From Eledone cirrhosa (taxonomy: Eukaryota), in the NCBI GenBank assembly GCA_964016885.1, contig OZ024740.1:86552001-86616000 (forward strand): a stretch of DNA of 64,000 bases. Direction: 5' to 3'. Every line of letters begins with the position of its first letter. The first letter of the stretch is position 1. Below the pieces are notes generated by a model that ran no database searches, had not been told where the DNA came from, and worked only from the letters and a program-made list of their open reading frames with translations. Positions 31,149-64,000 of this stretch are shown here, piece by piece. Made by a program: the position numbers and the translations under genes.

Positions 31149-31193
31149 AATATTGCTGATGAGTTGTAACAACAACGAAACTAGTTCAATATT
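31149..31193 (+). ncRNA. Minimal type I hammerhead ribozyme (inverted unit)
   Basis: Core CTGATGA 31156-31162, GAAA 31177-31180, predicted cleavage after GTT at 31186. Confidence 0.9.
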
Positions 31194-32165: not shown

Positions 32166-32170
32166 TCTAT

Positions 32171-37800: not shown

Positions 37801-38520
37801 CCTCACACATCTGCAGCAGGAGCATACCATTGTTGTTAAACTTTCCCACCCCATGCCTTCCGATTACATTCCATGTGTTAAAATCCCTACCCACTTTAGC
37901 ATTAAAGTCACCAAGCACGATGACCTTGTCTGCCTGAGGGATATTTCTTAAAACACCTTTCAAGACACGGTAAAAGGACACTTTTTCTTCATCGACAGAA
38001 TTCATAGTTGGAGCATACACACTCACCAGGGTCGTATATCTTCCTTTGTCCAGCGGAATTCTCATGGACATAAGACGCTCACTAATCCCTACTGGGAATT
38101 ATTCTATTTTATTCACAAGAGCAGTCTTAACAGCAAATCCTACCCCAGCCTCTCTTCTGGTTCCTTCATCTCTTCCTTTCCAGATGAATGTATATTCTCC
38201 ACAAAATTCTGTAAGATGACCATCTCCAGCTAACCTCGTCTCAGATAAAGCCACGATGTCAAGATCGTAACGTCGAAGCTCCTTTGCAACAAGAGCGGTC
38301 CTTCGTTTAGGACGCTCCAAGGAATCCTTGTCAAGCAGCGTCCGTACGTTCCAGCAGCCAAGACTAAGTGCCTTGTTTGGCTCTATTACAATGGCACGAT
38401 GACGAGCGGGCCCAGGCTGTGATAACCTGGGGCCCCTGCCCTTATTGCCAATTATCTTTTTTGTTCCAGAACCTAAATTGCCAATTATCTTTTTTCTATT
38501 GTTCTGGAACATCATTAAAT
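34750..38520 (-). mobile_element. Near full-length RTE (BovB-like) LINE with APE + RT + three C2H2 fingers, frameshifted
   Basis: GCWNVRTL, VALSETR, SVYAPT, GDFNA, WTDHRLV (APE); NYRGI, QSGFR, FVDLTKAFD, YADD (RT); LLYACETW; split over about eight ORFs; 3' stem-loop at ~34755-34790. Confidence 0.93.
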
Positions 38521-38559
38521 TTTGAAAAAAAAAAAAAAAAAAGTAATAATAATAGTAAC

Positions 38560-38596
<37 letters not shown>

Positions 38597-38599
<3 letters not shown>

Positions 38600-41500
38600 T
38601 TTTCTTTATTAACCACAAGTGTTCACATAAAGTAGACATTAAGGACAGTACAGGACAATACAGGACGGTACAAATGGGCATTTCTGCGTGTAAAAAAAAC
38701 AGAGGTTGAAATAAAATAACAAAGAAAAAATTCCCCAATAGGGGGGAGACTTCCAAGGGACATTTGTGGAGAAAGCCCATTAAAAGACCACAGTGGCCCT
38801 GACTACCAGGGCAAGTGCCCTCTCCCAGTTTTCCACCTTTAATTTACAGAGAAATACTCAGAGAAGGCCCATTCATTCGGGCCATATTTGCTTCTCTCAC
38901 CCATCTTTCAACAAAATGCTGGGAAGAGAGCACTTCCCTCTCTACCCTGATTTTCCTTTTCAAATGAAATTTGAAAAAGTTAATCAGGGCATCACCGAAG
39001 AGGTAAGTGCTCGTCTTCAGCCCTTTCAAACGTGTCCACCATATTATCTCTTTCGCCATGGCCACCAGACAGATAAAAACTGCCTGCCCTTCCAGGCTAA
39101 AGGAAGGGGGCGGGGCAATCCTCACGATGGACTCAGCTGATAGCTGGATAGGTCCTACACGTGACAGCAGGTGTTCGACATAAACCCACAAGTCAGCAAT
39201 GCTCGGACACTGGACGAGTGCGTGCAGGACGGTTTCATCGCCCTGCGCGCATCTCGGACATGCCCGGCTGACGGCACCTCCATGCCTGTAGAGTTTATCC
39301 CGAACTGGCAAAGCTCCTCGGTAGCACTGCCAGGCCAGGGATTTCTGGAAGTTGTCCATAGGCCCCGGCCCGAAAGTCCTTCCGAAGAGATTGGCTAGTT
39401 GATTTTCGTCGACGCCTAGATTTTCTCCAAGTACGTCGTCGCTCTTCCCCTCCACTAATCCCCTCTAGAACGCCAAGGTGGAGTTTCCACCGATCACATT
39501 GCCCGATTGGTCGAGGGCTGTGAGCGCCTGAAGACATTCCAGTCTCCAAGCGCTCCCTCTCGGTCTTCGCTTGACCCAGGACTGCAGCTCCGTCAAGGAG
39601 ACGAGCTGGGGAAAAACGTGTCTTGCAAACGGCGACCACACCTGATCACCGTCGAGGAAGAGGTGGAGATGTCGTAGCCTGAGCGCGTGTCTGCGCATCA
39701 TCAGCCACGGCATGCCCAGCCCTCCACGTAGCGGGTGTTGACAGCAGATGGACCGCCTGACCATCGGAGCGCGTCCCTTCCACAAGAAGCGAAAGAGCAA
39801 ACGCTCCAGCGCAGTCAGGCGGGGCTTAGGACAAGGTACGACGGTCAGGCGGTAGTAGATGACGGATGCGATGTACGCATTCGCCACCTCCGCTCGACCT
39901 TTCAGGGATAGCTTCCTCTCGGCCCATTTCTGGGTGAGATAAGCCACCCTGCTCGTCACCTCGTCCCAGTTTTTGTCCGTCTGGAGGTCTGGACCGAACC
40001 AGACCCCTAGCAATTTAACCGGTCCGTCCGTCCAGCGCCCGACGACGCTGTTGGACGGCATGGACCTGCCTCTCCAGGTGCCGAGCTGCAGGCCCACTGA
40101 CTTTTCCTGGTTGATCATTGCTCCTGTCACCGCTTCGTATTCTCTTAGTGTAGTGCCGATCGCCTCGATGTGTTTGGCGTTCGACACCACTACGGTGACA
40201 TCGTCGGCATATGCTGACACGGATCTTCCGCATCCTAGTTCAGCGGGACCCCCCTCAACGTCTCCAGTTTGTGCAGTAATGGCTCGAGAGTCAATACGTA
40301 CAATAGGGACGAGAGGGGACATCCTTGGCGGACCGAGCGCATGATGTTGAACGGTTCCGAAAGGTGACCGTTCACTCTCACTACAGAGCAGATGTCGCTG
40401 TGCATGGCAGCGATCCAGCCTCTGAAGACGGGCCCAAAGCCAGCCGCCCCCAGGACTGCCGCTAGGTAACGATGGTCGACCCTATCGAAGGCTTTCGACT
40501 GATCTAAATTGATCAAAGACCCACCCGTGCCAGGTTCCCTAGCTACCCTCTCTACGATGTATCGCATGAGGTGGAGGTTGTCGTGGATGGATCTGTCGGG
40601 AATGGCGCATGTCTGTGCCTCTCCCACCAGACCACCAACGACAAGCGCCAACCTCTTTGCTAGCACCTTGGCCAAAATCTTGAACTCTGTGTTTAGCAGA
40701 GTTATGGGCCTAAAATTATCTATGTTATCCCCCTTGTTCGGATCCTTTCTCAGCAGCGCCACCGCTCCTCGGCTCACAGAGCTGGGAATTCTCCCGTTCT
40801 GTTGCCAGTTGCAGTAGACGTCCGCCAAGAGGCCTCCGAACAAGTTTGGCATTTGTACGTAAAGTTCATAGGGCAGACCATCCAAACCAGGCGATTTACC
40901 CCTTGTGCAACTAGTCATTGCATCCCGTACTTCAGCGGTTGTTATCGGCTTTTCGCAACACTCCGCCTCAGTGGCCGAAAGCCGCGGCAGTCCGTCGAGG
41001 TAGACACTAAAGTCCATCCCTCGATCCGGCCCGCCACTGCCCCCGAACAGTTGAGCGAAGTGTCACTGAAAAGCTTCACACATTTGGCCGGGATCGAGTA
41101 GCATGCGCCCGTCGTGGTCCACCAAAGACCGGATCGTGGCTTTATTGCCACGACGCGCCTCCGCCACTCGGGCCCATTGAACGGCTTTCGTCCCCTCGTG
41201 TCTGAGAGCACGCACCCTAGCTCTGACAACGCAGCCTTCGTGCTTTGCATTGAAGAATTGGTCAAGGGCCAATTTCGCCGCAAGTACGTCGGTCGCGATG
41301 CCTTTGCTAAGCGCCTCATCTAATTTTCTAACTAATTCTCCCTCTGCTCTATTTTTCGCTATTGCTAAAGTCTTACTAAACCTAATGGACTCTATTCTAA
41401 TTGCTCTTTTCAGAGCAAACCACCACTTGTTGTTGACGATGGCCCCCGTCAACGCCCGCTTAACTAGTTCGCTAATCCGGTCTCTGTAGGCCTTGCGCGC

Positions 41501-41718
41501 TGGTAAGGACGCGTTTAGCTTCCAGTAGCCGGGTCCTCGTCTATGAAGCCTATCTAAGTCAAGCACACAGATCACGAATTTGTGGTCCGTGTAGCTGACT
41601 ATCTTGAATTGTGACTATCTTGAATTGATGACCCTATGCGATTTGTCCAAGTCCACATTGGTACATTCGGGAAATCCATTCGGTACCTGTCAGACAGTTC
41701 AAAACGTCTGAGCAGGTT
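38597..41718 (-). mobile_element. Tx1/L1-clade LINE, 5'-truncated, with stops and frameshifts, flanked by (AAT)n
   Basis: GPGYWKLN, KSPGLDG, NFRPITLLN, LDQSKAFD, RQGCPLS, YADD, C-terminal CPRC..ETVLHALVQC; AATAAA just before the repeat tail. Confidence 0.92.
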
Positions 41719-41736
41719 ATAATAATAATAATAATA

Positions 41737-44272
41737 ATCAGGCGATACGAGAACAGAGTCAGTCAGTATAAACAGAACCGCATGTTCGACAACAACCAGA
41801 AGATGCTGTCTGGACAGCTTGAGGGGAAAGAAAGAGGCAACGACTTGATCCCTGGGGCGGAGCAAACTAAAACATTCTGGAGAGGAATATGGGAGCAGGA
41901 TGTTAGACATAATGTCCAGGCAGGGGAGATTGAGACAGTACAGAGGGAGATCGGTGAGCAGGCACAACAACAAACTGATTTGAGTATCACAGTTGAAACT
42001 CTTAGGGGGCAGGACAAAAAACTAACCAACTGGAAAACACCAGGCCCAGATGGTGTGCAGGGGTATTGGATTAAACATTTAACATCCCTCCACCCGAAGC
42101 TGACGGCCATGTTCAATGACTGCTTGGTGTCGGGTGAGGTGCCAGAGTGGTTGACAAAAGGTACCACAGTTCTGATAATGAAAGACCGAATCAAGGGTAA
42201 TGATGTTACCAACTATAGACCTATCACATGTCTGTCCGTAATGTGGAAACTGTTGACGAGCATTGTGTCTGAGGAAATCTACCATCACCTCCACACAAAC
42301 AACTTGTTACCGGACGAACAGAAAGGATGCCGAAAGAAGTCGCGTGGTACAAAGGACCAGTTACTTATTGATAAGATGGTAATGGGGAATTGCAGGAGGA
42401 GACACACTGATCTTGCCATGGGATGGATAGACTACAGAAAGGCATTTGACATGGTGCCTCATTCTTGGATCACCAAAAGCCTGGAGATATTCAGGGTGGC
42501 AGATAACATCAGACAGTTGCTAGGCAGGAGTATGGGGTCCTGGGAGACAGAGTTGACATCAACTGGAGTATCCTTGGGAAGCGTGAAGATCAAGAGAGGT
42601 ATCTTCCAGGGAGATAGCCTGTCCCCTCTGTTGTTTGTCCTTGCCCTGATGCCCTTGACCATTATGCTGCGAAAAGTGAGAGCAGGATACAAGTTGGGAA
42701 GGGGAGAGCTTACCATCAATCACCTCCTCTTCGTGGACGATCTTAAGCTCTTCGGGAAAAGTGAGAAGGAGTTGGATGTGCTTGTTGACACTGTCCGTAT
42801 TTTCAGCAGTGATATATGTATGCAGTTTGGTATTGGTAAATGTGGAGTCATTGTGATGAGGAGGGGTAGGTTGAGCAGAAGTAACGGGATCCAGATACCA
42901 ACAGGTGAGATGATAAAGGAAATTGACTCTGAGGAAGGATACAAGTATTTGGGCGTTCTGGAAGCTGATGGCATAAAGAACAAAAAAATGAAGGAATTGT
43001 TAAGAACTGAATACATTCGGAGAGTAAGGAGCGTATTGAAGTCACATCTGAACAGCAGAAATGCCATAAGCGCAGTAAATTCCCGAGCTGTGTCTATTAT
43101 TAGGTACAGTGCGGGAATTCTGAGATGGAATGTTGCTGAACAAAAAGAAATGGATAGGAAGACTAGGAAGCTATTGACTATCTACAACATGTTCCACAAG
43201 AGGAGTGATGTCGATAGACTCTACCTAAGGAGATCTGAGGGTGGAAGAGGTCTTATCAGCATAGAGGACTGTGTTCAGATGGAGAAAAACAACCTATACA
43301 AATACGTGACCTATAGTAAGGAGTCAATGCTCAGAACTGTACTGAAGGAGGGGACAGTAGGCCAGGGGATGTCCAAGGAGGAAATAACATCAAGGAGGAA
43401 GAGCAGCCTTAAGGGAAAATCCCTTCATAGTACTTTCTTTGAGAAAACTGAATTTAGAGATCCACAGACATGGATCTGGTTGAGAAGAGGAGACCTCAAA
43501 AAGGCTACAGAAGGAATGCTAATGGCTGCGCAGGAGCAGGCCCTCAAAACGAAGTGGTTGAAGCACCATATTTACAAGGAGGAGGCTAGCCCACTGTGCA
43601 GGATCTGTGGAGAGAGAGAGGAGACTGTGGCTCACATTGTGTCCGAGTGTAAACACCTAGCCCAGACCCACTATAAGGGCTGGAGACACGATGTGATGGG
43701 CAGGGTGATCCACTGGCACCTGTGCAAAGTAAACAATTTACCACATTCTGAGAAATGGTATGAGCATAGGCCAGAGGCGGTGATGGAGAACAATCAGGTG
43801 AAGGTGCTGGGGGATTTTAGGATACAGACGGACAAAAATCTGGAACACAATAGACCTGACCTGGTGGTTGTGGACAAAGAAAAAAGATCGTGTCTGATTG
43901 TGGATGTGGCCTGCCCGTTCGACACGAGAGTGCAAGAGAAGGAGAGGGAGAAAATTAACCGATACCAGGACCTAAAGTGGGAGGTGAAAAGGATTTGGAA
44001 CTGCCATGAAGTCAAAGTGATCCCGATTGTCATAGGCGCACTAGGGACTATCTCCAAAAGTTTCCAGGGATGGTTAAAGAAAATCGGCCCCTTCACGCTT
44101 TTTGGAACGCTTCAAAAGGCATGCTTGCTTGGAACAGCAAGAACCCTCCGATACGTCCTGAATATCTGAGGCTGCAGGTATTGGCTTGATATTCATTCCA
44201 ACGGACTTTCCAGTTAACCAACATCAATGACTGAGATTCAAGGAATAACAACAATAATAATAATAATAATAA
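41737..44272 (+). mobile_element. R4/Dong-clade LINE (RT + CCHC + restriction-like endonuclease), 5'-truncated, inserted in (TAA)n
   Basis: Flanked by (TAA)n on both sides, the known Dong target; ~75-bp 3' UTR. Confidence 0.92.
41782..44169 (+). CDS. R4/Dong-like RT-RLE polyprotein (uninterrupted but N-terminally truncated)
   Basis: 795 aa: PGPDG, NYRPITCL, IDYRKAFD, GIFQGDSLSP, FVDD, YKYLG, CRIC..H..C, RHD, RPDLVVVD..IVDVACP, EK..RY. Confidence 0.9.
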   Translation: MFDNNQKMLSGQLEGKERGNDLIPGAEQTKTFWRGIWEQDVRHNVQAGEIETVQREIGEQAQQQTDLSITVETLRGQDKKLTNWKTPGPDGVQGYWIKHLTSLHPKLTAMFNDCLVSGEVPEWLTKGTTVLIMKDRIKGNDVTNYRPITCLSVMWKLLTSIVSEEIYHHLHTNNLLPDEQKGCRKKSRGTKDQLLIDKMVMGNCRRRHTDLAMGWIDYRKAFDMVPHSWITKSLEIFRVADNIRQLLGRSMGSWETELTSTGVSLGSVKIKRGIFQGDSLSPLLFVLALMPLTIMLRKVRAGYKLGRGELTINHLLFVDDLKLFGKSEKELDVLVDTVRIFSSDICMQFGIGKCGVIVMRRGRLSRSNGIQIPTGEMIKEIDSEEGYKYLGVLEADGIKNKKMKELLRTEYIRRVRSVLKSHLNSRNAISAVNSRAVSIIRYSAGILRWNVAEQKEMDRKTRKLLTIYNMFHKRSDVDRLYLRRSEGGRGLISIEDCVQMEKNNLYKYVTYSKESMLRTVLKEGTVGQGMSKEEITSRRKSSLKGKSLHSTFFEKTEFRDPQTWIWLRRGDLKKATEGMLMAAQEQALKTKWLKHHIYKEEASPLCRICGEREETVAHIVSECKHLAQTHYKGWRHDVMGRVIHWHLCKVNNLPHSEKWYEHRPEAVMENNQVKVLGDFRIQTDKNLEHNRPDLVVVDKEKRSCLIVDVACPFDTRVQEKEREKINRYQDLKWEVKRIWNCHEVKVIPIVIGALGTISKSFQGWLKKIGPFTLFGTLQKACLLGTARTLRYVLNI

Positions 44273-45861: not shown

Positions 45862-47918
45862 AGCTTCCACCCTGAAGAGGTGTGTGTGCATTTCCTTTCC
45901 CTGTTCCAGGCCCCGCTGCAACACCTGTCCCCACATCACCACCTTCCAGGGTCCCAACGGCCACTCTCTCTCTGTCCGCATGCCTTCCGCTGCACCTCCT
46001 CCAACCTAGTCTACGGACTTCGCTGCACGGAGTGTAGCGCGACTTACGTCGGACAGACTGGACGTCGCCTGGCGGACAGATTTACTGAACACCTCCGGGA
46101 TATTCATCTCGGTGGTAGTTCCCCCATCGCCCGCCACTTTGGTGCCCCTGGACATTCTGCACACCACCTCACAGTCTGTGGCCTACTCCAATGCCACGGA
46201 ACACCCGCCACTCTCCTAAGGGTCGAACAACGAACCATCTTCACCCTACAGACCCACACTCCCCCCGGCCTGAACTCCCCACCCTTATTCCTTTAGCCTT
46301 CTACCGCCCCCCTCCCCCACACATATCCCCCACTAACACCACTAACACACCCCTCCTTTTCACCGCCCACCCCACAACTAACAATACTAACACCTCCACC
46401 CCACATCCGACCACCCTTCCCCAACTAACATACTAACATCCCTCCCTTCTTCTCCTCCCCCCTCTTTATCACACGCACCGGTACATATATACACGCGCTC
46501 ACACTAAACACACACCCTACTACCACCACTAACCCTCACCCCCACACATCCACCCCACCACCCCGCAACTAACATCACTAACACCCGCCGACCCCAAGCA
46601 CACGAACACACACACCCACTTACACCACCCACTCTACACGCAACTAACATCACTAACACCCCCGAACCCTACGCACACGAACACACACACCCTCTTACAC
46701 CACCCACTCTACACACCCTACCACCACTGACCCCCACTCACACCCGCATTCAACCCTTTCTCCACCTCCAGTATACTAACACCCACTAACACCCCCTTCA
46801 CCACACACACACTCATCTAAACACGCACACACACACCAGTACACTACACTCCCTCCATCGGCCCCCACACCCTTCTCTCCCCGCTCCACCCACACCCTTT
46901 CTCAAACACACACACATCCCACTAACACCTCTACTAATTCACACACACACCCTCCTCACTCCAACTTTCACACCTACCCATCCTCTCCTCTGTCCACCGC
47001 ACCTCCGCACACACTGACACACCGACTTTCTTCACTTACCATTCTACCCTACTGCTGCTATGCCTCTCTGACCACCTCCCCGCACACACAGACACACAAC
47101 CCTCCTCCTGCCTTGACCGTCTGACCACTTCCTGTTGCGCGCGCACCCCACATCTCCGCTCTTCCGACCAATCTCTTCACGGATTACACATATGTGAACC
47201 TTGATCCCGAGAATCCACCACATCCAAAGGATATTACTCAGCATTCCACCACATCCTTTTACGGAATTACATTAACGACTCACCCTCGGACATACACCCA
47301 AAAAAAAAATGTTTCCCCACACGCCACCTACATCCACAACACGCATAAACACCACACACACACGTGCGTACCACCACATATTTATACATTCAGCCTCCGG
47401 AATCCTCTCCCCCACCCCTTTATCCACACACGCACACACACTCCGACCTACACCCCACCCCACACACACCTCTTCCTGAACATGCAACCCCGTTCTTCCC
47501 CCAACTTTTACTTTCACATACACACACACACACAAGTACACCTACACACACACACCACCTTCAGCCCTCCCCACTCGGACACCCCGTCTCCCTCTCCCCA
47601 CTCCACCCGCCACCACCCCTACACGCCCCACACTCTTCCACCACCTGTTTTACTCCATGTGTATTTTTAATTTTATTTTGATCATGCCTTTATATTTAAT
47701 TTCATTTGTACCGTTTCCTCTCACCCCCTTTTTTCTATATGTCTCTCCACCACTCCCCTACACACCCTTGGAACTCTCTCTCTCCCACACACTTTTTACC
47801 TGAAGAAGGGCTTATGCCCGAAACGTCGTTCCCCACCACCACCCCATTCTCAAGAGCGTGAAACTAATAAACCTTTGTTCGTACTGCCTCTGTGTTTTGT
47901 TCCCGTTCAATTTTTTAC
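45862..47918 (+). mobile_element. PLE family D (Neptune-like) 3' fragment: Cys linker + GIY-YIG + long C/A-rich UTR + HHR
   Basis: FPCSRPRCNTCPHI then, after a frameshift, CTSSNLVYGLRCTECSATYVGQTGRRLADRFTEH..E..GLN; ends in (TA)n. Clade label is inference. Confidence 0.88.
47798..47829 (+). ncRNA. Minimal PLE-type hammerhead ribozyme
   Basis: AC CTGAAGA A GGGC-TTAT-GCCC GAAA CG TC GT; AATAAA ~40 nt downstream. Confidence 0.85.
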
Positions 47919-49800: not shown

Positions 49801-50024
49801 TTGTCAGTGTTGAACAAACGAGCAACGATGGTTGCTAGACACTACGGCTTAATACGGGATGTTTGTTCACAAACACACTGAGCATTATAATAAATGTTGG
49901 GTGAATCCATACGTACATATATATATGTGTGCATGTATGTATATATATATATAGATACTACTGTACGTCTGTATACATATATGTATGTGCGTGTACATAC
50001 TTATATATATATATATATATATAT

Positions 50025-50761
50025 ATACATAATCGGAGAAAGCTAATAGCGATACTCCGGCCAAATTCCAACTCACTCAACAAACATTAGGAAATACCTG
50101 AGTATATTCCTAATTAAACGTTCGGGGTGCTAACTAATTGTATTGTGTGGAAAATTGGCTGTATCAGTTCATATGAGATATATCAAATATATCTCTTCCC
50201 AGACGGACGTCTCGTTTCACTATAAGATTTCTACAAGTTGGGTGAAATTATACCAATTTATGTAGAAGCTTGTATAAGATCAACAGATACTTATTCAAGT
50301 GGGCTCTTATAATTCTTCAGTGGGTGCCCAATAATATTAATATTGATAATCAAATCAACATCAATATTTAGAGATAATCACCATCAGTGCTTGAGGGAGC
50401 TGCTAGTTTGTTAGTCCAGCAGTTCTAAAGAAAATCTCACACTGTCTCGAAAATAGGAGGAAGGAGATTATCGCCAAAAAACAATATATGCGCAGGTCAA
50501 TAAATTCTGAAAAGAATTCAAGCCACGTGCTAGAACTCAATTGGATATGAAAAAATAACCATATGTGCGCATCGCTTGATGACACACATAGATATTTTCT
50601 CGGCAAAATAACAGAATGAGATACAAGAACAAACAATCAATATTCATATAAAAAATAAACAAAGAGAGTCATACCTTATATCGGGAAAGTTCATATCTGT
50701 TGCTCCAAGAGTAAATATATAAATACATAATTGGAGAAAGCTAATAGCGATACTCCAGCCA
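50025..50761 (-). mobile_element. Retrozyme/solo-pLTR-like 698-bp unit with 39-bp terminal direct repeat, in (TA)n
   Basis: ATACATAATYGGAGAAAGCTAATAGCGATACTCCRGCCA at 50025 and 50723; internal HHR; TA runs on both sides. Confidence 0.75.
50198..50324 (-). ncRNA. Type I hammerhead with 77-nt branched insertion in stem II
   Basis: CCCA CTGAAGA ATTATAAGA [77 nt] TCTTATAGT GAAA CG-AGACGTC-CG TC TGGG. Confidence 0.8.
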
Positions 50762-50796
50762 TATATATATATATAACATATTTATTCATACATACA

Positions 50797-50848
<52 letters not shown>

Positions 50849-50888
50849 TGTATGTATGTATGAATAAATATGTTATATATATATATAA

Positions 50889-51036
50889 CGAAGGAATTGT
50901 GGTAAGGAACCATATCGACCATAACGTACCAGAGTACTCAATACTTAGTGGGTAATAGGAAAAGTATGACCCCGACGGAGTCCAGAAATAGCCGTCGAAA
51001 TGGCTTGAGCTCTGTCGTCGGGGTCATACTTTTCCT
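50889..51036. mobile_element. Miniature inverted remnant of PLE family A termini
   Basis: 50889-50978 matches 1556-1656; 50979-51036 matches 6459-6515; (TA)n on both sides. Confidence 0.85.
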
Positions 51037-51046
51037 ATATATATAT

Positions 51047-51694
51047 CTATATATATATAAAATTGTATTCCTGTTTGTTTATTTGTTTGTTCACGAACTA
51101 CTCCTATAGTTTTGGAGATAGACCCCCATAACCATATATATTCTGAAACTATATTGCCCAGGGTACATGGATAATTATATTTCATTTCAATCAAAAAGTT
51201 CCCCGGGGGCACAAACTCCCGCTGAAAACATTTTCCCTTCGATTTATATGAAATTTAAACTATAGGTAAATGACAAGATATGATGCCTATTCACAAAATT
51301 TCAACAAATTTCAATATTAAGACACCCTAATGGGTGTTAAACCCCCTATTAGAGTTTCCCAAAAGTACAAACCCCCGCTGAAAATTGTTTCCCTTCGATG
51401 TATATGAAATTTAAATCATAGTTAAATGACAAGATATGATGCCTATTCACAAAAGTTTTGAATTGATATTTTGAAAAAAATTATTTACAAGAAACAAAAT
51501 AAGAATAAGTAATTTTGATTTGATATATTACAAAAAATAATGTTTTCCAATTGTTCATGCATTACATTTTACATTGAGTAATATTGAAATGCAGAGTTTT
51601 TCTCCATAAATTATATCACTGATTTAAAATAAATCGTCATTTTCTTACCAAAAAAATGTGTGAAACGCAGCAAGGCGCGAGTAATTCGGCTACT
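51047..51694 (+). mobile_element. Non-autonomous Helitron-like element with internal ~90-bp duplication
   Basis: 5' TCTATATATATATAAAATTG..(TTTG)n; 3' GCAGCAAGGCGCGAGTAATTCGGCTAC; 51210-51300 repeats at ~51366-51455. Confidence 0.65.
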
Positions 51695-51774
51695 ATATAT
51701 ATATGATATTTGTAATATATTTTTAATATGCTTGTGTATGTATTTATATATATATATATATATATATGCATGTA

Positions 51775-51847
<73 letters not shown>
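51775..51847. repeat. (TAG)n microsatellite
   Basis: Directly visible. Confidence 0.97.
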
Positions 51848-52239
51848 CAGATGAAGTCGGAGATTGAATAATCTTAGTTCATCTCAGCGAGATATTTAAA
51901 CGCAGACAGTGCCCAGAAACAATGGGTCTCAATTGAACAAGATAGACAAAATATGGAATATTCACCACAAGTTATCTATGAGGAAATCAACATGTTTCCT
52001 TTAATATTGACCATGTCTACTGCTGTTGAATAAAAGACAGCCACACAATTTATATATAAATATACACACATACGTGTTTTTGCGTATATATACTTATGAG
52101 CATGTATATGGATACATATTTATATATATATACATATGTGTATATATGTGTATGTGTGTCTGTGTGTGCGTGTTTATATTTATACATAGAGAGAAAGAGA
52201 GAGGAAGGGAGTGAGATACATACATTTTAATTAACTTGC

Positions 52240-52553
52240 ACACCGTCGGTTGCGACGATGAATGTTCCAATTGATCCGATCAACGGAACAGCTTGCTCAT
52301 GAAATTAACGAGCAAGTGGATGAGCATTCCACAGACACGCGTAGCCTTAACGTTCTCTGGGAGATTCAGCTTGATACCGAACGTGACAAGGCTGGCCCTT
52401 CGAATTACAAGTACAACTCATTTTTGCCAGCTAAGTATACTAAAACAGCAGGAAAAATAGTGTCTTGCTCAAGGACACAACGCACCGCCGGGAATCGAAC
52501 TCAGGACAGTATGGTTGTGAACCGAATACCTTCACCACAAAGCCATGCACCTT
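52240..52553 (-). mobile_element. tRNA-derived SINE, second family
   Basis: Minus head TGGCTTTGTGG..GAGTTCGATTCCCGG then TGTGTCCTTGAGCAAGACAC; homologous to 12675-12940. Confidence 0.8.
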
Positions 52554-53801
52554 CATGCATACATGTGTACATACATGTTACATATAGATTACTAACTTTG
52601 TTGGTTTCTTGTGAAGTTTACTATAATCCTTCTGATAAATATATTCTATAAATAATAAAAACTAACTTAAACCAAATAATTACTGTTGCAAACGCAGAAA
52701 AGGTTTATATTACCTTGTAATTAGAGAATCCACATCAACGTATCTAGTATGTATATGTACGTATTCATTAAAAAAATTATTTTATCCGACCTGTAATCTT
52801 CTAAATATAGATATGCGGGTGAACAGGGTGGAGGAATCCTTTAAATGAAAAGAGCAAATTGCAAGTGCGTAAGAACTTGGAGTGCGCATCTGTTAAAGCA
52901 AATAATGAATCTTAATTTTACAAATTCATATGTATGCACACGATCACACTATGCAATATTAATTAGAATTTTATAATGCATTAATTAACCAGATAGTTTA
53001 ATGCTTTAAATATCATAGGACTAGAGGCGCCACAATGTATAATGTCTTAATCCTAATTTAAGCACAAGGCCACCAATTTAGTGTAAGGGGAAATTCAATT
53101 ATATTGAGCGCAGTATTTGATTTGTAGTTTATTTTATCAAACACGGAAAGATAACAGACAACGTTGATCTCGGTGACATTTGAAATTAGACTGTAAAAAC
53201 CCAGAACAAATGCCGCAAAGCATTTTGTCCAATGCTTTAGCAATTCTCTCAATAATTCACTACGATAAACGATCTAAATATAATGGAACTTCTTATATTG
53301 CAGCTAAATGAGAAGATTGCTTTTTTGTTTTATTTTGTGGAGCTCTGAGGTGCTATATGTGACTGATAATGCAACGACTTTTAGTTGGGTTGCAAGATTG
53401 TTATCCATAAGTCTTGCAAATAAGTGGTTCTTGCTTAAATTTAAGTGTTAGAAAAGAGTAGGTGTCAAAAAACAGAAATAAAGTTTTCGTCACGTGGTTG
53501 CTCAAATGTGGATATGTTTCAATATCTACGTTGGATTTATTATAAGATTCCAAACGAGATTAAAGTAGTAAATTTCGATATCAAAGTATTATAGGATTGT
53601 AGATGAATTAACTCAAGCTACAAGGATTCAGGAGCTTCATCTGGCATCATACGTCAAAAATAGTTTCACATAGATGTAATTCGAGTTGATGATTTGTTAA
53701 ATCTTGAAAAAAATACCTTTCAAAATGATTAAAATTATTGAAAATTCCTAAGTATACTCCATCACTTAATCTCGTTTCTGTTCTTTCAGTGTTGTAAAAT
53801 G

Positions 53802-53825
53802 TCTCTCTCTTTTTCTCTCTCTCTC

Positions 53826-53895
<70 letters not shown>
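53802..53895. repeat. (TC)n microsatellite
   Basis: Directly visible. Confidence 0.95.
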
Positions 53896-53898
<3 letters not shown>

Positions 53899-55415
53899 GT
53901 GTGTGTGTGTGCGTGTTTGTGTGTGTATGTGTGTGTTTTAATTAATGTGTGTGTTTTAATAAACAATTGCAACATAGACTCAAATTGTTGATATTGATAA
54001 AAACTATAATGTACTGACTCCAATCCTTATCATTAATAAGTCTAGACACAACCAACAAAAATAGCAAATTACGTAACCACTTTTGGTCCTCTATCTTCAT
54101 AATGGTAATTCCTTTAATATTCCTTGACATTATCACTTCATCTTTCAGTATAAAGTAATTTTTAGCCAGTGGACGTAACAATCTTAAAATAATCACATTT
54201 CACTTACTTCGAACTCCCTTAATTTATTATTAATTCTCTTCTCTGCTACTCACTCCCTTATATTTTTCATTATGGCTACCACTATCATCATTGTTTCAAT
54301 CTTAGAAAATGTCAATAACGCACTATTAATGTGTGCTCATGTTTCATCAACTATTTCTTATTCAAAATAACAAGTCTTGTCACAAATGTCACGCTGTCCG
54401 ATAACATGCAGCTAAGTTTATCATCTGTAGATGAAAATCACTTTATTGCTGATTTGACCTCAGAATAAGATTTGTATCTCCTGAATTCCTTGCATCGATT
54501 TTTAAGCAAATAATACGTTATCTCACGTATGGATGGTCAACTTCGTTTTATCATATGTGTGTGTTATTTATAGGTATTGAATGAAAGAAATTCTGAGGAT
54601 TATTGTATAAAGGATACTTGGATATTACAGAACATTTTTTTTTAATACAGTCAAGAACTTTCTTCCTTAATAAGCTAATATTCTAAAAAAAAGATCAAAC
54701 TTTCTATGGAGTTAAAATTCGTGCAAGAGCAGGATCATTCATTTTAACAAACTCGCCTTCGATGCATAGCTTAACTTTCTTTGTCATTAGCTGATTCTCC
54801 ATAACATGCATACGTTACAGGGGTATATTGCTGTTTACATAAGGAATCTTTTTTAAAATTGCTGGCTTGTAAAAAAGCCTGGGTTTATTTTAGTCTTTCT
54901 ATGCCTGATAAAGTTGTGGCGTTCAAGATTGAATTTTTTAAGTGACCGAATCTTAAAAAACCGACTTCATTTACATCAGACAAAATAATTATCTGTCCAT
55001 TTTCATCGAACTTTTGCCGGCCACATTTCTTTTTCTTTTGCTAGAATTAGCTATAGTAGAAGTAGTTATTTTTATACATATTATAATGTAAAACTAAACT
55101 GTAATGATGCAACTGACAATATCATCACCAACAACAATAGCCAAAACAGTACAAGCTGAAAGCAGTGGATTTTAGGGAGGAGGGAAAATGTTACATGAGT
55201 TTAATAAACATGTAACTACTATATATAAAAGGCAAACACAGAAATAAAAAAATAATTAATTGTTTCTACTATTGGCACAAGGCGAGCAATTACCCAGTAC
55301 ATTACTGGTACTTTATTTTATCGACCTCGTAAGGATGAAAGACAAAGTGAACCTCGGCATGTTATTGGGTTTACGCTTAGACGAAAGATAAAGAAAAGTG
55401 AGTTCAACGTATCGG

Positions 55416-55483
<68 letters not shown>

Positions 55484-55550
55484 TGTATCTCCACAGTTGT
55501 AATATGTCCAATAAATTCCTTTCGTCGCAACACTAATTCTCTTTTTTTCT

Positions 55551-55622
<72 letters not shown>

Positions 55623-55625
<3 letters not shown>

Positions 55626-56355
55626 GAACAAATAAAACAAAATAAACACAGGGAAGCAAAAATACAAAGTCTTATTAGGTTCATGCTTAGAGGAAGTGGC
55701 AGAACGTTCTACGTTTCGGACGGATGTCTTTCGTCGGGAAAGTTCAGATAGGGAGAGAATAGGTAAGTACATGAAAGTTGTTATATGAAAGTTTGGAAAG
55801 GAAAAGTACATGAAAGTTAGGAAAATATTGTTAGGTTGAGGTGGTAGGTGAATGGTCTGGTATTCGGGAGTGGAACCCCCATGTGGAGGTCAAGGTGTGC
55901 AGTGGGTGTGGTTGTGTGTGTGTGTGCCAATGCGATGAAATTTGTAAGTGTGCATTATGGCTTCAATGTGTGTGCATGTATGAAGATGTGCGTGTCTCTG
56001 AGTCTTATATTGTTGGTGTGCGCACACTGGTGTGTGTGTGTGTGTGTGTGCCTGAGAGTCCTTTGTTTTTGTGCATGTGTGTGTGCGTGAGTGTGTGTCC
56101 GTGGATGTGCAACTTTGTGAGTGTGTGCGTGTGTGCGTGGACGCGTGTATTTGACTATTGTTTCTATGTATGAGAGCGTGTGCGTTTGTGTATTTTCACG
56201 TATGTGTCGGACGAGTGACTGTGTACATGTGTCTCTATGTGTGTATTTGTGACTTTCTGTATTGTCTGTTGCAGAATAATTTTGTGTGCATGTGTGAGGG
56301 GTAAATGTGTATATGTAACTTTTTTCTATTTTTTCTATGTATGCGAGTGTCTAGG

Positions 56356-56430
<75 letters not shown>

Positions 56431-57250
56431 CGTATGTGTCGGATGAGGGTGTTGCGTATGTGTCTACAGCAGAATTACTTTGTGTGCATGTGTGCATGTG
56501 TGTATGTTTGTGCATGGGTATTCTCTGTGTGTGTATGTGCGTATGTGAATATCCATGTGTAAATCGGTGTCCAAGAGAGATGTATAGAGCTAGTGCGATT
56601 AGTGATGTATTCAGAGAGGAAGTGGTTAGGTGGTGGAGAGGAGGGAAAGGGAAGGGTGAGAGAGGTGTTGAGTCACTGAGAAGGGAAGTGGTCTGGAGGG
56701 AGGTGTGGTGGCAGTGTATGTATGATTACGTGTGTGTATTGGTGGTACATGGGTGAATGCAGTAGTAAATGAGGTTGTTAGTAGTTGGTGGGTAGGTGTG
56801 ATTGGTGGTGGAGTAGCGGCGAACGAAGGTAGTTTGACCAGTGAGGGGATTCCAGTGTATGTAGAGATTATTTGTAGTGTAAGATGGTGAGGTGGTTCGG
56901 GTGTGTTTGAGTGGTAGAGTTGCTGATTGTGGGGGTAGCCTGGGGCTAGTAGTGTTAGTGGTGGATAGTATGGTCCGTTAGTTAATTAGTTAATGCTGTT
57001 GATGGGGTTATGTGTAGGCGCATCATATGGGTTTAACTAGTAAATTGGTTGTGTAGGTATGTGTGTGTATATGTTGCTGTATAGGGGTGTGATGAGCTAA
57101 AGAAAGAGGGTGGGGAATTTAGACGATTTTCCGTCCAGGTGTGGAGAAAAAAACTTTTGTGCGCTGCTCATGTCTCAGGTGTGTGTCAGGGGCTCCGGAG
57201 CACGCAATGTGGCTGCAGACAGTAAGGTTGTGGGTGGAGTTCATCCGGCG
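55623..57250 (-). mobile_element. Diverged PLE family D-related 3' fragment with degenerate HHR (55707-55740)
   Basis: Minus HNLTVCSHIACSGAPDTHLRHEQRT resembles HHLTVCGLLQCHGTPATLLRVEQRT; C/A-rich UTR; TTC CCGACGA AA GAC-ATCC-GTC C GAAA CG TA GAA; 3' end at (TA)n. Confidence 0.78.
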
Positions 57251-57414
57251 GGTTTTCAGTTTCCACGAACAAAATTTTATCCAGGAAGTTTGGTTTGACC
57301 TGAGACTATAGTAAATGACAATTGGCCTAAATGCTGCACAGTGGGACCGAACCTAGAACATCAGGAAATTCTTAACAAATTTGCCGTGCTATGTCCATGG
57401 GTATGTGTTATATA

Positions 57415-58268
57415 CAGGGTGCATCAGTCTTTAAAGACACCTTTTTCTTGAGATTTAACTTTCTTGTTACTAATTTGTTTTGTTTAAATTTTCCGATAAA
57501 TAATACCAGACATTAAATTGACTCAACACATGAAAATGCACGCTGTAATCGTTGCCTTAAAACCACAGCATAGTGGTACAGCGATAGTTTCCTTTTTGAA
57601 AGTTAACCGATCCTTTGTCGTCAAAGTTAGAAAGGACCTGTAAGCTGCCGACGGGGAGCCAATATTAGCAGCCAAGCGCAAAACGCATGCACAATCAGAA
57701 CTGCTAAATTTGTAAAAAGAAAAAAAAAAAAAGTCTTGCCTCTTCATTTTTTTCTCAGGGTCAATGCTGATGTCTACAAAGGGGTTTTGGAGACAGTTGT
57801 GAAGTCTGGATAGACAGGGTAAGCAACGGTAGACCGTTCGTCTTCCAACAAGACTCTGCGCCCTCTCATAAGGTAAGAACGACATATGTATTGATGCATG
57901 ACAACCTCCATGGCCACGTTCTTCCATACACACGGCCTCCTAGCTCACTAGACCTCAACCCCCTGGATTATTATGTATGGGGCGCAGTTGAAAGACAGGT
58001 CAATCACCGCCATCAAAACACTATAGATTCGCTCAAGTTCGCCATTACCAACTCCAGTATTGATAGATGTCATCTGATTCGGACATGCCAGTCATTGAAG
58101 CAGTCATTGAAGCAGTCATTGAAGCTAACGGAGGATCTATTGACTAAATATCATAAATGTATTGTAAATAATATTTATACCATTGTGTATCTAATATAGC
58201 ATTTCTTTGATGTCTATGCGTCTTTTTCTAAATTCATGCAAATGTCCTAAAAAAACTGACTCACCCTG
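57415..58268 (+). mobile_element. Internally deleted Tc1/mariner-superfamily transposon with TIRs and TA flanks
   Basis: TA|CAGGGTGCATCAG...CTGACTCACCCTG|TA; motifs FQQDSAPSH and PPSSLDLNPLDYYVWG. Confidence 0.85.
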
Positions 58269-58393
58269 TATTAATGAAATTGAAAAAAGTATGGAAAATA
58301 CTAACAAGATAGTACCGTGAACTGTCTTTCAATATATACATTTTCTTTGTTGTCGGCAGTCAAAGCCTTATTTGTTGTAATTATAATTCCGAA

Positions 58394-58585
58394 GGGCGGT
58401 GGATTGGCAGTATCAGTAGAGAGTCGGACGCCATGCTTTCCAGCATAGTTACGTCCCTTTACGGTCTGTGTTCAAATCCCGCCGAGGTTAACTTTGCCTT
58501 TCATCCTTACGGGGTCGATAAAATAAAGTACCAGTAATGTACTGGGTAATTGCTGGCCTTGTGCCAAAAGTAGAAACAATTATAA
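58394..58585 (+). mobile_element. Full-length tRNA-derived SINE (Meta-like core), young
   Basis: GGCGGTGGATTGGCAG..GTTCAAATCC..GCCTTTCATCCTTACGGGGTCGATAAAATAAAGTACCAG; flanked by the direct repeat AATTATAATTCCGAA (58379, 58577). Confidence 0.88.
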
Positions 58586-59217
58586 TTCCGAACCTAATAC
58601 TAACTCTACATCCATCATCTGTTGTTAACTGTCCATCGATCTCTGCCACTAATCATAATATCCAGAGTGCTAAGTGAAAAAAACAACTCTCTCAAAATAA
58701 ACAGGAACACCTATAAAGCTGTAAATCTCATAAAAGTACGTGTCACTGTGAAAAAGACTTTAATTACCTAACTAATTAGGCATTTCCATCAGGAGCAATC
58801 CATCTCTAGAGTGTAACAAAAATAATTGAGCTCAACGTAAAGATAGCATTATTGTCAACATCTAGGGGAAGACGGCGACACAAACGTTTATGTCGACCAG
58901 AAACATACAGAGAAATTTGCTTAATTCTTTCATAACAGAGCAGCGTGAATGTTGGAAGACACATTTAAAGATATAAACAATATTAACACAGAGGAGAAGG
59001 GGTAGGGGCAGGAGGGGAGGAGTGGGAAGAGGAGAAGAAGAAGAAGAAGAAGAAGAAGAAGAAGAAGAAGAAGAAGAGGAGGGGTAGAAGGAGGAAGACG
59101 AGGAAGAGGAGGTAGAGGGGGAAGAAGGGGTAAACCCCAGGCCATCCCTCATCGAGCAGACCTAGGACTGAAAATGTTACACCCATGACCATCTCATCAT
59201 TTTTCAGCATAATGCAG

Positions 59218-59382
59218 CAGTATCGGTAGAGGGCCGGACGCCATGCATTGCAGCAGAGTTACGTCCCTTTACGGACTGGTTCAAATCCCGCCGAGGTTAA
59301 CTTTGCCTTTCATCCTGACAGGGTCGATAAAATAAAGTACCAGTAATGGACTGTCCTTGTGCCTAAAGTAGAAACGATTATT
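59218..59382 (+). mobile_element. tRNA-derived SINE (Meta-like core)
   Basis: Close copy of 58410-58585. Confidence 0.85.
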
Positions 59383-59759
59383 CATTGTGTTTTTTTTCTC
59401 TTTTTAAGTCTGTTGGGCAGAGATTAAGAAACTGTACCGCGACACTTTAGCGTGTCACTGATAATTTGATCACATTTTAAGAATATTTGGTTGTGAAATA
59501 TATTTGTGATCCGACAACTCAGCATATAATTCGATATCATACTGGTGACACATGATTTTATATATTGGTTTATATATAGGTTTTTATTAAATAATTTCCT
59601 TATCGAAAACAAAACTTAATTAACGTGTCACGAAATATTTTGTTTTTATAAAATGTGTAACCAACGTGAAGAGTTGGCATATTTCTGCTGCTGAGTGTAA
59701 TTGAAGAGAGATTTTGCTGTTATTCCTTGCAGAACTTTTCACTATTTAGAAGATCCCTG

Positions 59760-59915
59760 CTGAGTTACTGGTTAAGAAGTTCACTTCCCATTTATATAAT
59801 TCCAAGTTCGATCCCACTACACAGCATTTTGGACGAATGACTTCTGTTATAGCTTCGGCTCGACAAAATCACAGGAGTGGAAGTTGATAAGCGATAAGTG
59901 TAAGGAAGCCCGTAG
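59760..59915 (+). mobile_element. Degenerate tRNA-derived SINE, third family
   Basis: TGGTTAAGAAG..GTTCGATCCCAC head and GAAGCCCGT tail; a related minus fragment lies at ~57248-57355. Confidence 0.55.
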
Positions 59916-60462
59916 TGATATATATGTATAAATACATTCATGCACGTACATATATAATAAAACCATAGACGTTTATCGAGAAATGGCATGTGTAGCGTTG
60001 TATATATATCAATATAGTACCATCAGAAATGCAGCAGATACAAAGGATGAACAGACATCTGCAACTTTACCTTGTCAACCACCATACTGGCGTGCAATTT
60101 CGTAAATTAAAGTGATACAGCACTTGTAATGACAGTTTTTGCAATAGATTGGAGAACGATCTGTTGATAAGATGTATGTGAGACGATAATAAATAAAAGA
60201 ATGGCCAGGAAAATTTACGAGGGCTTTTCGACAAAACAGAAATAAATGCAGAAACAATTACAACTAGAAATAAGAAGAACCAACACCATAAGCCCACCAG
60301 CTGGTACATCACTAATATTTGTACAGGTGTGAGCTCTCTGAAGAGTTCGTATCTGAGGATTACATAACAGATATCATCGAATACGTATAACGGTGATTAC
60401 ATAATAAAGAGAATGTGGTGAAATTCTAGTCTACTACCTTCTACTTCATAACTATACCAACG

Positions 60463-60464
<2 letters not shown>

Positions 60465-60527
<63 letters not shown>

Positions 60528-60553
60528 CGCGCGTGTGTGTGCGTGCGCGCGTG

Positions 60554-60651
<98 letters not shown>

Positions 60652-60682
60652 TTTGTGTGTTTGTGTGTTTGTGTGTTGTGTG
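60465..60682. repeat. (GT)n/(GC)n microsatellite
   Basis: Directly visible alternating purine-pyrimidine tract. Confidence 0.97.
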
Positions 60683-60689
60683 TTAGAAT

Positions 60690-61082
60690 TAGCGCACTCG
60701 AGTCATCCACATTTGGGGCAATCACAAAGGTCAAACCAGCCAGAGCGCAATGGAAGGGCCTCACTCTGGAAAATCGCCTAGCTCATCCTGATTAACACTT
60801 GTGCCAGAGAATTGAGAGATCACAGCTCCGATACTATGGGCATGTAGTTGGAAAGCCTCTGGGAAGAATCGCTGGACAGATTTTACGGGAAAAACCAACC
60901 GGCGGGAGACCGAAGGGTGACCCTGAGCAAGATGGTGGGATAACACCCATGAGCTTGGCTGCTCTCGCTTGGGGATCCAGCTGGATTAGTTGTAGACTTG
61001 CTTCTCACAGGACTCACTTGAAGGAGTATTTGAGGACTCTGCTCCCACGACCCTCTCATGAATAAGTGGGTGAAGACGAAGA
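60690..61082 (+). mobile_element. RTE LINE 3' fragment
   Basis: RIERSQLRYYGHV...PTGGRPKG motif, frameshifted afterwards. Confidence 0.7.
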
Positions 61083-61145
61083 TATATATATATGTGTGTA
61101 TGTGTATTTATATATGTATGCATGTATGTATATATGTATGTATAT

Positions 61146-61382
61146 ATGTATGTATATATATATATACAGGCATTGCTTTATATCTGGAGATCTCTCTGCA
61201 CTTGTCGTCACATGGTACCATGGGCCCAGCACTAAGTGTCAATAATTGTCACAAGTGTAGTGTTTGTACCAGAGTTTTCAAGTCGCTGGCTGGACTAAAA
61301 AGTCACACTCGTTCAGCGCGTCGGTAGGGGTTCTCCTACATGGATATAAAGTAGTGGCCGTACTCGAAAACGAGTTGGCAGC

Positions 61383-61388
<6 letters not shown>
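61146..61388 (+). mobile_element. RTE-family 3' fragment (C2H2 finger + 3' stem-loop)
   Basis: HKCSVCTRVFKSLAGLKSHTRSARR*; flanked by (TA)n. Confidence 0.8.
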
Positions 61389-61444
<56 letters not shown>

Positions 61445-61588
61445 TATTTTCCGTTGTGTTGTAATATAAATATTACACACAGTAGATTGACAGCACACGT
61501 AGAGTTTGCTCGACGGTTCCAGTTGTAGTTCCAAAAGTAATCCGGAGAAAAATAGAAAGATTTGAATGGATACAGTTTAGTTGAAAGG

Positions 61589-61716
61589 AATTTATTGACA
61601 CGTGTTTCTATAACAGTTACATAACCTGAAAACAGCTGCAATCTACAAAGTTTTAGTTATGCAGACATTCAATATTTCAATGTTATTATTTACTGTCATT
61701 TCATCAGAATAATATT
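61589..61716 (-). ncRNA. Type I hammerhead with 74-nt branched stem II insertion (family F, left arm)
   Basis: TTATT CTGATGA A ATGACAGT [74 nt] ACTGTTAT A GAAA CACGTG TC AATAA. Confidence 0.75.
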
Positions 61717-62300
61717 ACTGAGGACCTATTTGGTTTTTATAGAGAATATTAGGAGGGAGGGGTGAAGTTGTTAGAAGAATAGTTGAGGGAGTGGTTTTTT
61801 GATAGCAGTGAGAATTTGGTGGCAGTGAGTAATTAGATTCCCATCTGTTGTTTTGACATTTTTATAGAATATATTATTGGTTATTTTTCTAAATCTATAG
61901 AAGGATTAGAGATAGTAAAGATATGCGTGGTTGGTTTTGTGTTTGCACTTAATTAACATTCAGACTTAAATTTTTCTTTCAAGTGTACGTATCCTTTCAC
62001 CCACGCATTCACACACAAATATATTTGCACACCTCTACAAAATACATATACTCACATTCACATAGTAACATGTTCATACTTACATACATATACACATGCA
62101 CACATATATATATACACACATGTATTCATGTACATACATACGCGTTCATGTGTATACATTTTCATACTCAACTTATCTTTAATTACTCACTGCCACCAAA
62201 AATTCTCACTGCTATCAAAAAACCACTCCCTCAACTATTCTTCTCACAACTTCACCCCTCCCTCCTAATATTCTCTATAAAAACCAAATAGGTCCTCAGT

Positions 62301-62428
62301 AATATTATTCTGATGAAATTACAGTAAATAATAACATTGAAATATTGAATGTCTGCATAACTAAAACTTTGTAGATAGCAGCTGTTTTCAGGTTATGTAA
62401 CTGTTATAGAAACACGTGTCAATAAATT
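62301..62428 (+). ncRNA. Type I hammerhead with 74-nt branched stem II insertion (family F, right arm)
   Basis: Core 62310-62316, GAAA 62409-62412, palindromic CACGTG, GTC 62418-62420, stem I TTATT/AATAA. Confidence 0.72.
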
Positions 62429-62611
62429 CCTTTCAACTAAACTGTATCCATTCAAATCTTTCTATTTTTCTCCGGATTACTTTTGGAACTACAACTGGAA
62501 CCGTCGAGCAAACTCTACGTGAGCTGTCAATCTACTGTGTGTAATATTTATATTACAACACAACAGAAAATACTGTATATTCACCTCCTGTAAAGTCGAG
62601 CAACCACAACA

Positions 62612-64000
62612 ATGGAAAAACACTACCTGGATATGTCACTCAAAAACATACGAACCCAAGGTAGAAAGGAATATTTATTGAGTATGATTCAAAAAACTAA
62701 TGAATTCATTCGACGTGTCAGGTGGAAAACGCTCCACTATGATAGAAGCCGTATGAACTCAACATTAGAAAGTGGTGTAAACAACAAATTCGGTTTTAGG
62801 ACGTGTAAAAACCCACCCACCAACCCACTATTAGATGCATTTGAGCAGGACCTTATGAACTTAATCCTTAAAATTAAATTCAAAGGACGCAACACCAACA
62901 ACAAATTACAGAAAGATATAAAAAAAACTACTGGACGACCTTAAAAACACCAAAGGAATTGTAGTAAAAGCGGACAAAACATCAAACTTGTATACTATGG
63001 ATTGCACTACACACAACAACTTCATTCGAAAAGAATTACATAAAAAATATAGAAAAACGAATGAAGTAACTCTTAAGCACATCAATGATGAGTCATGCGA
63101 AATAGTGAAAAATCTCGGAATCGAAGATAGGACAGGACCACTCTTACCGGCGGTACCCACCTTCAATCTTAAGGACCATAAGGTAAACTTTGATAATGAC
63201 CCTAAAATTAGATTAATCTGCCCCTCTAAATCAGATATAGGTAAAATAAGCAAATATATCTTAGATAGAATCATCCCCCAAATTAAGGCTAAGGTTAACA
63301 TTAAACTCTGGGGGAAGACCCAGGAAGCAATAAGATGGTTTAATAGCATTAGCAATAAGAATAAATCTAAGTTTATCCAGTTTGATATCGATGAATATTA
63401 CTCATCGATATCACCTGAAACTTTGAATAGAGCCATTAAGTTTGCTAAGGATAACTCTGACCTTACAAACGATGAAATTAAGATTATATTAGAAGCTAGG
63501 AAAACTATAGTCAAATTTGAGAACAGTTATTGGGTACGTAAAGATAGACCCTCTAACTTTGACATAACAATGGGCTCTAACGATTCGGCGGAAATAACTG
63601 ATATTGTGGGGTTATTTATCGCCTTTAGACTCCAGGAAAAATTCAGCAATCTCCACGGCGGAATATACCGCGACGATGTTCTCCTAGTTAAAAACCTAAA
63701 TAACCAAAAACTAGAAAAACTACGCAAAGATATAAGAAAACTACTACTCGAAATAGGACTAACTATAACATATGAATACAACCTTAAAGTAGTTAACTTC
63801 CTGGGTGTCACACTCAATTTAAACTCTGGTTTGATTAAACCGTTTCATAAATTGAATGAAAATCTCAAATACGTAAATGTTGGGTCTAACCACCCCATCT
63901 CTATAATTAAATCTATCCCTAAAAATATTTCCCTTAGAATCTCGGGTCTATCTTCTAACATACAAGTATTTAAGGAACACGCCGAGTACTACGATAACGC
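62612..64000 (+). pseudogene. PLE reverse transcriptase ORF with a single frameshift in an A-run (~62920)
   Basis: MEKHYLDMSLKNI..RRVRWK.. then, in a shifted frame read by hand, ADKTSN, LKDHK, FIQFDIDEYY, FDITMGSNDSAE, YRDD, GSNHP, open to the window end. Confidence 0.88.

Follow-up and report, generated by a model that had tools for sequence, protein, structure and literature searches.

The window analysed here, 64,000 nt of the Eledone cirrhosa genome (assembly GCA_964016885.1, contig OZ024740.1, positions 86,552,001 to 86,616,000 of the forward strand), contains two families of hammerhead ribozyme motifs, A and B. Our analysis supports the view that both are motifs of the type found in Penelope-like elements (PLEs), with a large structured domain II. 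We consider it probable that they are working dimeric type I PLE hammerheads that cut tandem precursors, that an insert at the distal end of stem II is tolerated, and that a predicted pseudoknot in A provides the contact between stems I and II. An earlier note on this DNA had read the motifs as PLE-type hammerheads with a large structured domain II, and this stands. It had also proposed that two unrelated families converged on one two-hairpin module; instead, B is predicted to be a rod, and domains of graded size and shape occur across the genome. Earlier publications already describe PLE hammerheads as well as long stem II, palindromic stem III, and pseudoknot contacts.

We confirmed one A site (50198-50324, minus strand) and two B sites (61589-61716, minus strand; 62301-62428, plus strand) where the earlier note had placed them. 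The core halves, said to lie about 90-95 nt apart, are separated by 95 nt in A and 92 nt in B. Both are type I motifs in C-G-S order. The proposed stem I pairings (CCCA/UGGG in A, UUAUU/AAUAA in B) were borne out, as was a short palindromic stem III (GACGUC in A); for the window copies, the dimer form of stem III has an energy of −14.7 kcal/mol in A and −10.3 kcal/mol in B, versus 0 for the hairpin form. Stem II had been given 8-9 bp, which is right for A (9 bp) and wrong for the plus-strand B copy, which has seven pairs, a U-U mismatch, and A-A by the core. The pair next to the core (10.1-11.1) is A-U in the A window copy and U-U in eight of ten aligned A copies; natural hammerheads with U-U at this place are reported. 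The sequences of A and B are indeed unrelated, the best similarity between them being not significant (E 0.11).

For family A, we aligned ten natural copies, hand-picked among 76 distinct sequences and including sister subfamilies, under a structure that we specified. With this structure, 92.5% of the alignment cells are paired, versus 34-50% in slid controls. Changes on both sides of a pair were found in 7 of 44 pairs: four in hairpin 1, one in stem III, and one each in stems I and II, whose covariation the earlier note had singled out for checking. The covariation score of the alignment was reached by none of 500 shuffles, a count that is not a probability because the ten copies are related and hand-picked. 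The two-hairpin domain proposed for A is supported, hairpin 1 being the one that covaries, but the pairs written for hairpin 1 (GCTTG/CAAGT) were wrong, and the corrected pairing is CUUG/CAAG plus AUAAG/CUUAU. Identity among five A subfamilies is 43% in the leader, 65% in hairpin 1, 94% in the hairpin 2 stems, and 58% in the hairpin 2 loop. The leader just 5′ of stem I complements the strand just after stem II, and the two are predicted to form a pseudoknot of 4-5 bp.

The contrast between hairpin 2 and hairpin 1 (94% versus 65% identity) also fits a rival explanation that we consider unlikely, in which the domain serves regulation or the docking of a protein. Cleavage would stay off until the reverse transcriptase (RT)/endonuclease (EN) protein of the element or a host factor binds, for example to hairpin 2 of A, which is invariant, and settles the competition with the leader-loop fold. 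During nested folding, stem II faces competition from the leader-loop helix, which can arise first, and cleavage of an Anolis PLE hammerhead requires the PLE protein (PMC11167929). Against docking, successful families include domains of many different sizes and shapes, which suggests tolerance, and the invariance of hairpin 2 may stem from recent ancestry. In a more specific version, which we would similarly regard as a long shot, family A would be a natural allosteric hammerhead whose invariant hairpin docks the Penelope RT/EN and switches on dimeric cleavage. A would then top a modular series with zero, one, or two hairpins behind the pseudoknot strand, and this series would also explain the "missing" hammerheads in other PLE clades.

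Two hairpins had been proposed for B as well, on the same architecture as A. Each has a pairing probability of 0.01, and they are 2.2 kcal/mol worse than a single-rod fold, so the claim of a shared architecture is not confirmed: A has the two-hairpin domain, and B is predicted to be a rod. The best fold of the B domain is one irregular rod (z −2.3 and −3.5), with which the alignment fold agrees, and B is predicted to be better modelled in this way. The C-G pair of the proposed second hairpin is lost in four of ten copies; the proposed first hairpin fits the variants (49/50 cells), as do the rod helices (49/50, 59/60, and 76/80). No leader-loop complement was found in B, the best being 3 bp. 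When we looked for more distant members of B with a different stem III, we obtained 20 matches versus 43 for the control; those resembling B carried a single change or were truncated.

The B insert could also be read as a 68-nt spliceosomal intron (62324-62391); once spliced, the RNA would contain a normal PLE hammerhead with a long stem and a loop of 4 nt. We judge this to be very unlikely. GT and pyrimidine-rich AG ends are present, a clean hairpin results once the stretch is removed, the acceptor AG is kept in nine of ten copies, and older copies vary where the loop would be; moreover, PLEs have introns, one of which overlaps a D. virilis hammerhead (PMC4209133). However, the donor is GTAAAT in three copies and GTTGAT or GTTGAA in seven of ten, with neither a G at −1 nor a G at +5. 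The donor consensus is thus not conserved, its GT belongs to stem II, and the rod fold accounts for the same variation. By exact pattern, there are 0 intron-less genomic copies, versus 3,570 exact genome matches to a 21-nt 3′ pattern of B (control 0); PLE copies often keep introns. The corresponding candidate donor in A is missing from A2. In four contig runs of unrecorded kind that cover L061:1181-4150, no joint spanned the candidate intron, and these runs are uninformative on splicing or expression because their 3′-biased depth resembles that of genomic DNA. No RNA source was listed for 62200-62900.

Table 1. Coordinates of the family A and family B features in the window.
Feature	Position	Strand	Remarks
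Family A element	50028..50760	−	~700-nt non-coding unit; short terminal direct repeat; (TA)n flanks
A leader strand of predicted pseudoknot	50326..50330	−	
A stem I 5′ strand and core	50314..50324	−	CUGAAGA at 50320-50314
A stem II 5′ strand	50305..50313	−	
A loop strand of predicted pseudoknot	50300..50304	−	
A inserted hairpin 1	50269..50299	−	sequence-variable, covarying
A inserted hairpin 2	50229..50267	−	7-bp outer stem invariant in 10/10 aligned copies; loop variable
A stem II 3′ strand	50219..50227	−	
A GAAA, palindromic stem III, GUC, and stem I 3′ strand	50198..50218	−	GAAA...GUC at 50218-50202; GUC at 50204-50202; predicted cut 50202/50201
B inverted copy of pseudo-long terminal repeat (pseudo-LTR)	61386..62181	−	~800 nt
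B hammerhead motif, inverted copy	61592..61712	−	core at 61707-61701
B partial pseudo-LTR	62180..62580	+	direct copy, upstream of the open reading frame (ORF)
B hammerhead motif	62305..62425	+	predicted cut 191 nt upstream of ATG
B core	62310..62316	+	CUGAUGA
B domain II	62317..62408	+	92 nt
B GT...AG stretch	62324..62391	+	68 nt; doubtful candidate intron
B GAAA, stem III, and GUC	62409..62420	+	GAAACACGUGUC
Hydra-type PLE RT ORF	62612..64000	+	frameshifted; continues beyond the window to a C-terminal endonuclease

We ran one descriptor over 80 evenly spaced 10-kb stretches of the genome (800 kb) and obtained 44 motifs, some of which are repeats within one element. The reversed sequence gave 0 matches and each of ten shuffles 0-1; with these controls and the exact-pattern controls near zero, we rejected a chance origin of the motifs. 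Spacers ranged from 12 to 115 nt and fell at 12-15 nt (14 motifs), 25-36 nt (14), 46-50 nt (11), and 96-115 nt (4), the one 65-nt match being an artefact that spans two short motifs. Twenty-nine of the 44 have spacers above 17 nt. Two shapes recur. One is a rod, seen in domains of 26-46 nt, in B, and in a 101-115 nt family; in the other, a loop strand comes after stem II and precedes either one hairpin (46-53 nt) or two (A). In this second shape, the loop strand matches the leader: a complement of at least 5 bp was present in 11 of 20 motifs versus 22 of 364 cross-family pairs, in a test whose windows were chosen after seeing the sequences and whose families are partly related. Because the sizes and shapes of domain II are graded, A and B represent the long end of a genome-wide series with no common module. 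A covariance model of A, applied to the window and the 800 kb, found A-type copies only (four strong, one decayed), with no B and no rod families. One family has a double change in its leader-loop helix (L162 versus L231, read by eye).

Several other hammerhead repeats came to light in the genome. A third large family, with a spacer of 101-115 nt (L011, L145, L181, L199, L203, L205, and L286), forms a bulged rod, and its stem II is very unlike between subfamilies yet paired. Tandem hammerhead repeats at L198 6637-7763 have ~528-nt units and a 49-50 nt domain, and L168 7762-7853 holds two short hammerhead motifs 53 nt apart.

The Rfam hammerhead models (clan CL00010) had no match in the window at the gathering score, and at E ≤ 10 no hammerhead was among the 101 matches in 49900-62700. 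As a control, three 14-nt-spacer motifs of this genome match Hammerhead_HH9 (E 1.4e-6). The earlier note's suspicion that short-spacer descriptors miss such folds was therefore correct and extends to Rfam, whose existing models cover neither family. The largest-spacer motifs are invisible to Rfam. Should the sample reflect the whole genome, roughly two thirds of its hammerhead motifs would exceed the 7-17 nt spacer of one published core search, invertebrate ribozyme counts would need long-spacer models, and claims that some PLE clades lack hammerheads would need redoing. The families form a natural series, from a short loop to a rod, a pseudoknot with one hairpin, and a pseudoknot with two, which could serve to test tertiary stabilisation of PLE hammerheads and protein gating of cleavage.

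As working hammerheads, A and B would cleave themselves after GUC, likely as dimers paired through the palindromic stem III. The extra sequence would extend outward beyond the far end of stem II, a place at which hammerheads are known from aptazyme engineering to tolerate inserts. In A, the leader-loop pseudoknot would replace the usual contact between loop I and loop II, and both hairpins would hang from this one junction; the B domain would simply be an extended helix. Domain II would have grown several times in separate families, not as one shared module. Cleavage at successive copies would yield unit-length RNA of ~0.7-1.0 kb for the A-type repeats and 3.6 kb for B, and this RNA may be the template for the PLE reverse transcriptase, as judged from earlier work (PMC4209133, PMC6765202).

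It is important to note that several observations weigh against activity and against the folds on which it depends. Four pairs of the A pseudoknot are nearly invariant, the fifth fails in five of ten copies, and no double change occurs in these pairs among the ten aligned copies. The outer stem of hairpin 2 is invariant, so the alignment cannot prove its pairing. Nested folding of the whole motif gives stem II a probability of 0.3 in A and 0.0 in A2 and A3, since the leader-loop helix competes with it, and A shares 73-74% identity with A2 and A3 in both the ribozyme region and the 3′ flank. None of 35 B pairs changed on both sides among copies that are ~90% identical, so the B fold is a prediction only. 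A PLE hammerhead was also dispensable for insertion in vitro (PMC11167929). Finally, the position next to the core is A-A in three of ten B copies, the intact-ORF subfamily included, and A-U in seven.

This A-A, found in young B copies, can also be taken to mean that the motifs are inactive relics, with hammerhead halves pushed apart and kept as structured RNA for packaging or priming. Minimal PLE hammerheads cleave weakly (PMC4209133), and Naiad PLEs thrive without canonical motifs (PMC8557442). We give this reading little credence, given that N7 and N17 are the sole core positions that vary across the A subfamilies while the sequence around the core drifts, and that the stem III strands, though unlike between these subfamilies, keep their self-complementarity throughout.

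The two families sit in different settings: the A unit has no ORF of its own, and the B motif lies in pseudo-LTRs that flank an RT-EN ORF. The longest stop-free frame in the A unit is 77 codons. A 22-nt A pattern has 3,233 exact genome matches (control 0). Ten distinct A loci extend to the 5′ end, and six of these come after the 3′ end of another unit; same-strand units in three A-type loci are spaced by 700, 730, and 989 nt. Since A is non-coding and often head-to-tail with another unit, we infer that it is a retrozyme-like, non-autonomous PLE derivative. We found no autonomous partner for A; the Hydra-type ORFs nearby change from locus to locus.

In the B protein, the motifs RWK, DKT, and CxCX5C are present together with an endonuclease at the C-terminus, and the target of the element is (TA)n. 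By motif match, these are the features that define Hydra-clade PLEs (set against PMC8557442). Pfam returned 0 families on three B ORF frames. Other B copies have intact ORFs of 785-798 aa, with the motif flanking them as direct repeats 3,587 nt apart (L128-L130). About 120 nt after the B ORF stop, just past the window end (L061 ~4045-4100), lies a second hammerhead-like motif with CUGAUGA and a 4-bp stem I. The G of position 12 is missing from nearly all of 21 aligned copies, and the motif is likely a decayed earlier ribozyme.

Like the minimal and dimeric type I hammerheads of metazoan PLEs (Cervera and de la Pena 2014; PMC4209133), A and B have type I order, a stem I of 4-5 bp, a long stem II, a tiny palindromic stem III, a pseudo-LTR site (in B), and thousands of dispersed copies. 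Unlike them, they have an internally structured domain II of 92-95 nt, no G10.1-C11.1 pair, and, in A, a predicted pseudoknot. B resembles Hydra-clade PLEs (Craig et al. 2021; PMC8557442) in its protein motifs with C-terminal endonuclease and its (TA)n targets, and the U-U next to the core in eight of ten A copies recurs in the Hydra-clade hammerheads of their File S2. However, the B unit is 3.6 kb versus "generally <3 kb" in that clade, and loop 2 is 3-10 nt in the Hydra rows of File S2, with a maximum of 34 nt in the table (PLE-X1_sMoe). The core search of the same study allowed 7-17 nt and flagged eight "half cores" of 35-50 nt; its label "HHR_half_core", applied to Naiads, anticipates long spacers, without a structure. 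Its supplement gave no match to six motifs of stem III or to two of family B, though line breaks there may hide matches.

In all three types of pseudoknotted hammerhead, loop II is likewise joined by a helix to the side of stem I (Perreault et al. 2011; PMC3088659). The motifs described here differ in having one or two extra loop II hairpins, a dimer-type stem III, and a eukaryotic repeat as host. Like non-LTR retrozymes (PMC7229834; bioRxiv 10.64898/2026.07.22.740005), A is non-coding and head-to-tail with one type I motif per unit; its unit is 700-990 nt versus ~300 nt, and its tandems are mostly partial. A branched domain II of ~90 nt did not turn up in our literature search, although supplementary descriptors and alignments may hold long variants. 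Long stem II variants may already figure in the work of Lunse et al. 2017, reportedly the closest on PLE hammerhead variants, and in the Terminon paper. In the discontinuous Clec2 hammerhead, the insertion sits in loop I of a type III motif. Its halves are split by a large insertion, as in A and B, but the Clec2 motif lies in an mRNA 3′ untranslated region and its insertion is several hundred nt long (described in PMC6765202).

A separate repeat in the window carries hammerhead blocks in S-G-C order (6836-6903, minus strand, with a second copy at ~7425-7490, plus strand; loci L303-L332 and L131). The non-circular S-G-C permutation has been reported from metatranscriptome, metagenome, and RefSeq searches (PMC10085705). 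A 16-nt pattern of the repeat has 295 exact matches (control 0). Its stem I is 6 bp and its putative stem II only 1-2 bp; among 17 parsed loci (of 30), stem III is fully paired in 11, and it exists in at least four versions that covary. Positions N7 and N17 are variable, and an extra upstream helix seems to covary. This repeat is possibly more novel than the long-domain hammerheads. In the PMC8557442 supplement, the 3′ end of the record just before Naiad_Ovul seems, by eye, to carry GAAAC ahead of CUGAUGA, and its stems I and III match; this too would be S-G-C order, which could explain the "missing" Naiad hammerheads.

Large near-perfect inverted repeats occur elsewhere in the window (1683-6467, 30114-31490, and 32170-33951) and are possibly other PLE inverted insertions. 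Further frames and fragments, at 35023-44169, 45862-46296, and 57771-58199, are ones which we take to be RT/endonuclease frames like those of long interspersed nuclear elements (one of 845 aa at 41632-44169) and GIY-YIG-like and transposase-like fragments. A sub-threshold match to U1 small nuclear RNA lies at 60680-60815 on the minus strand (E 3.3e-7), and a tRNA-like sequence at 6587-6657 on the plus strand is probably the head of a short interspersed nuclear element.

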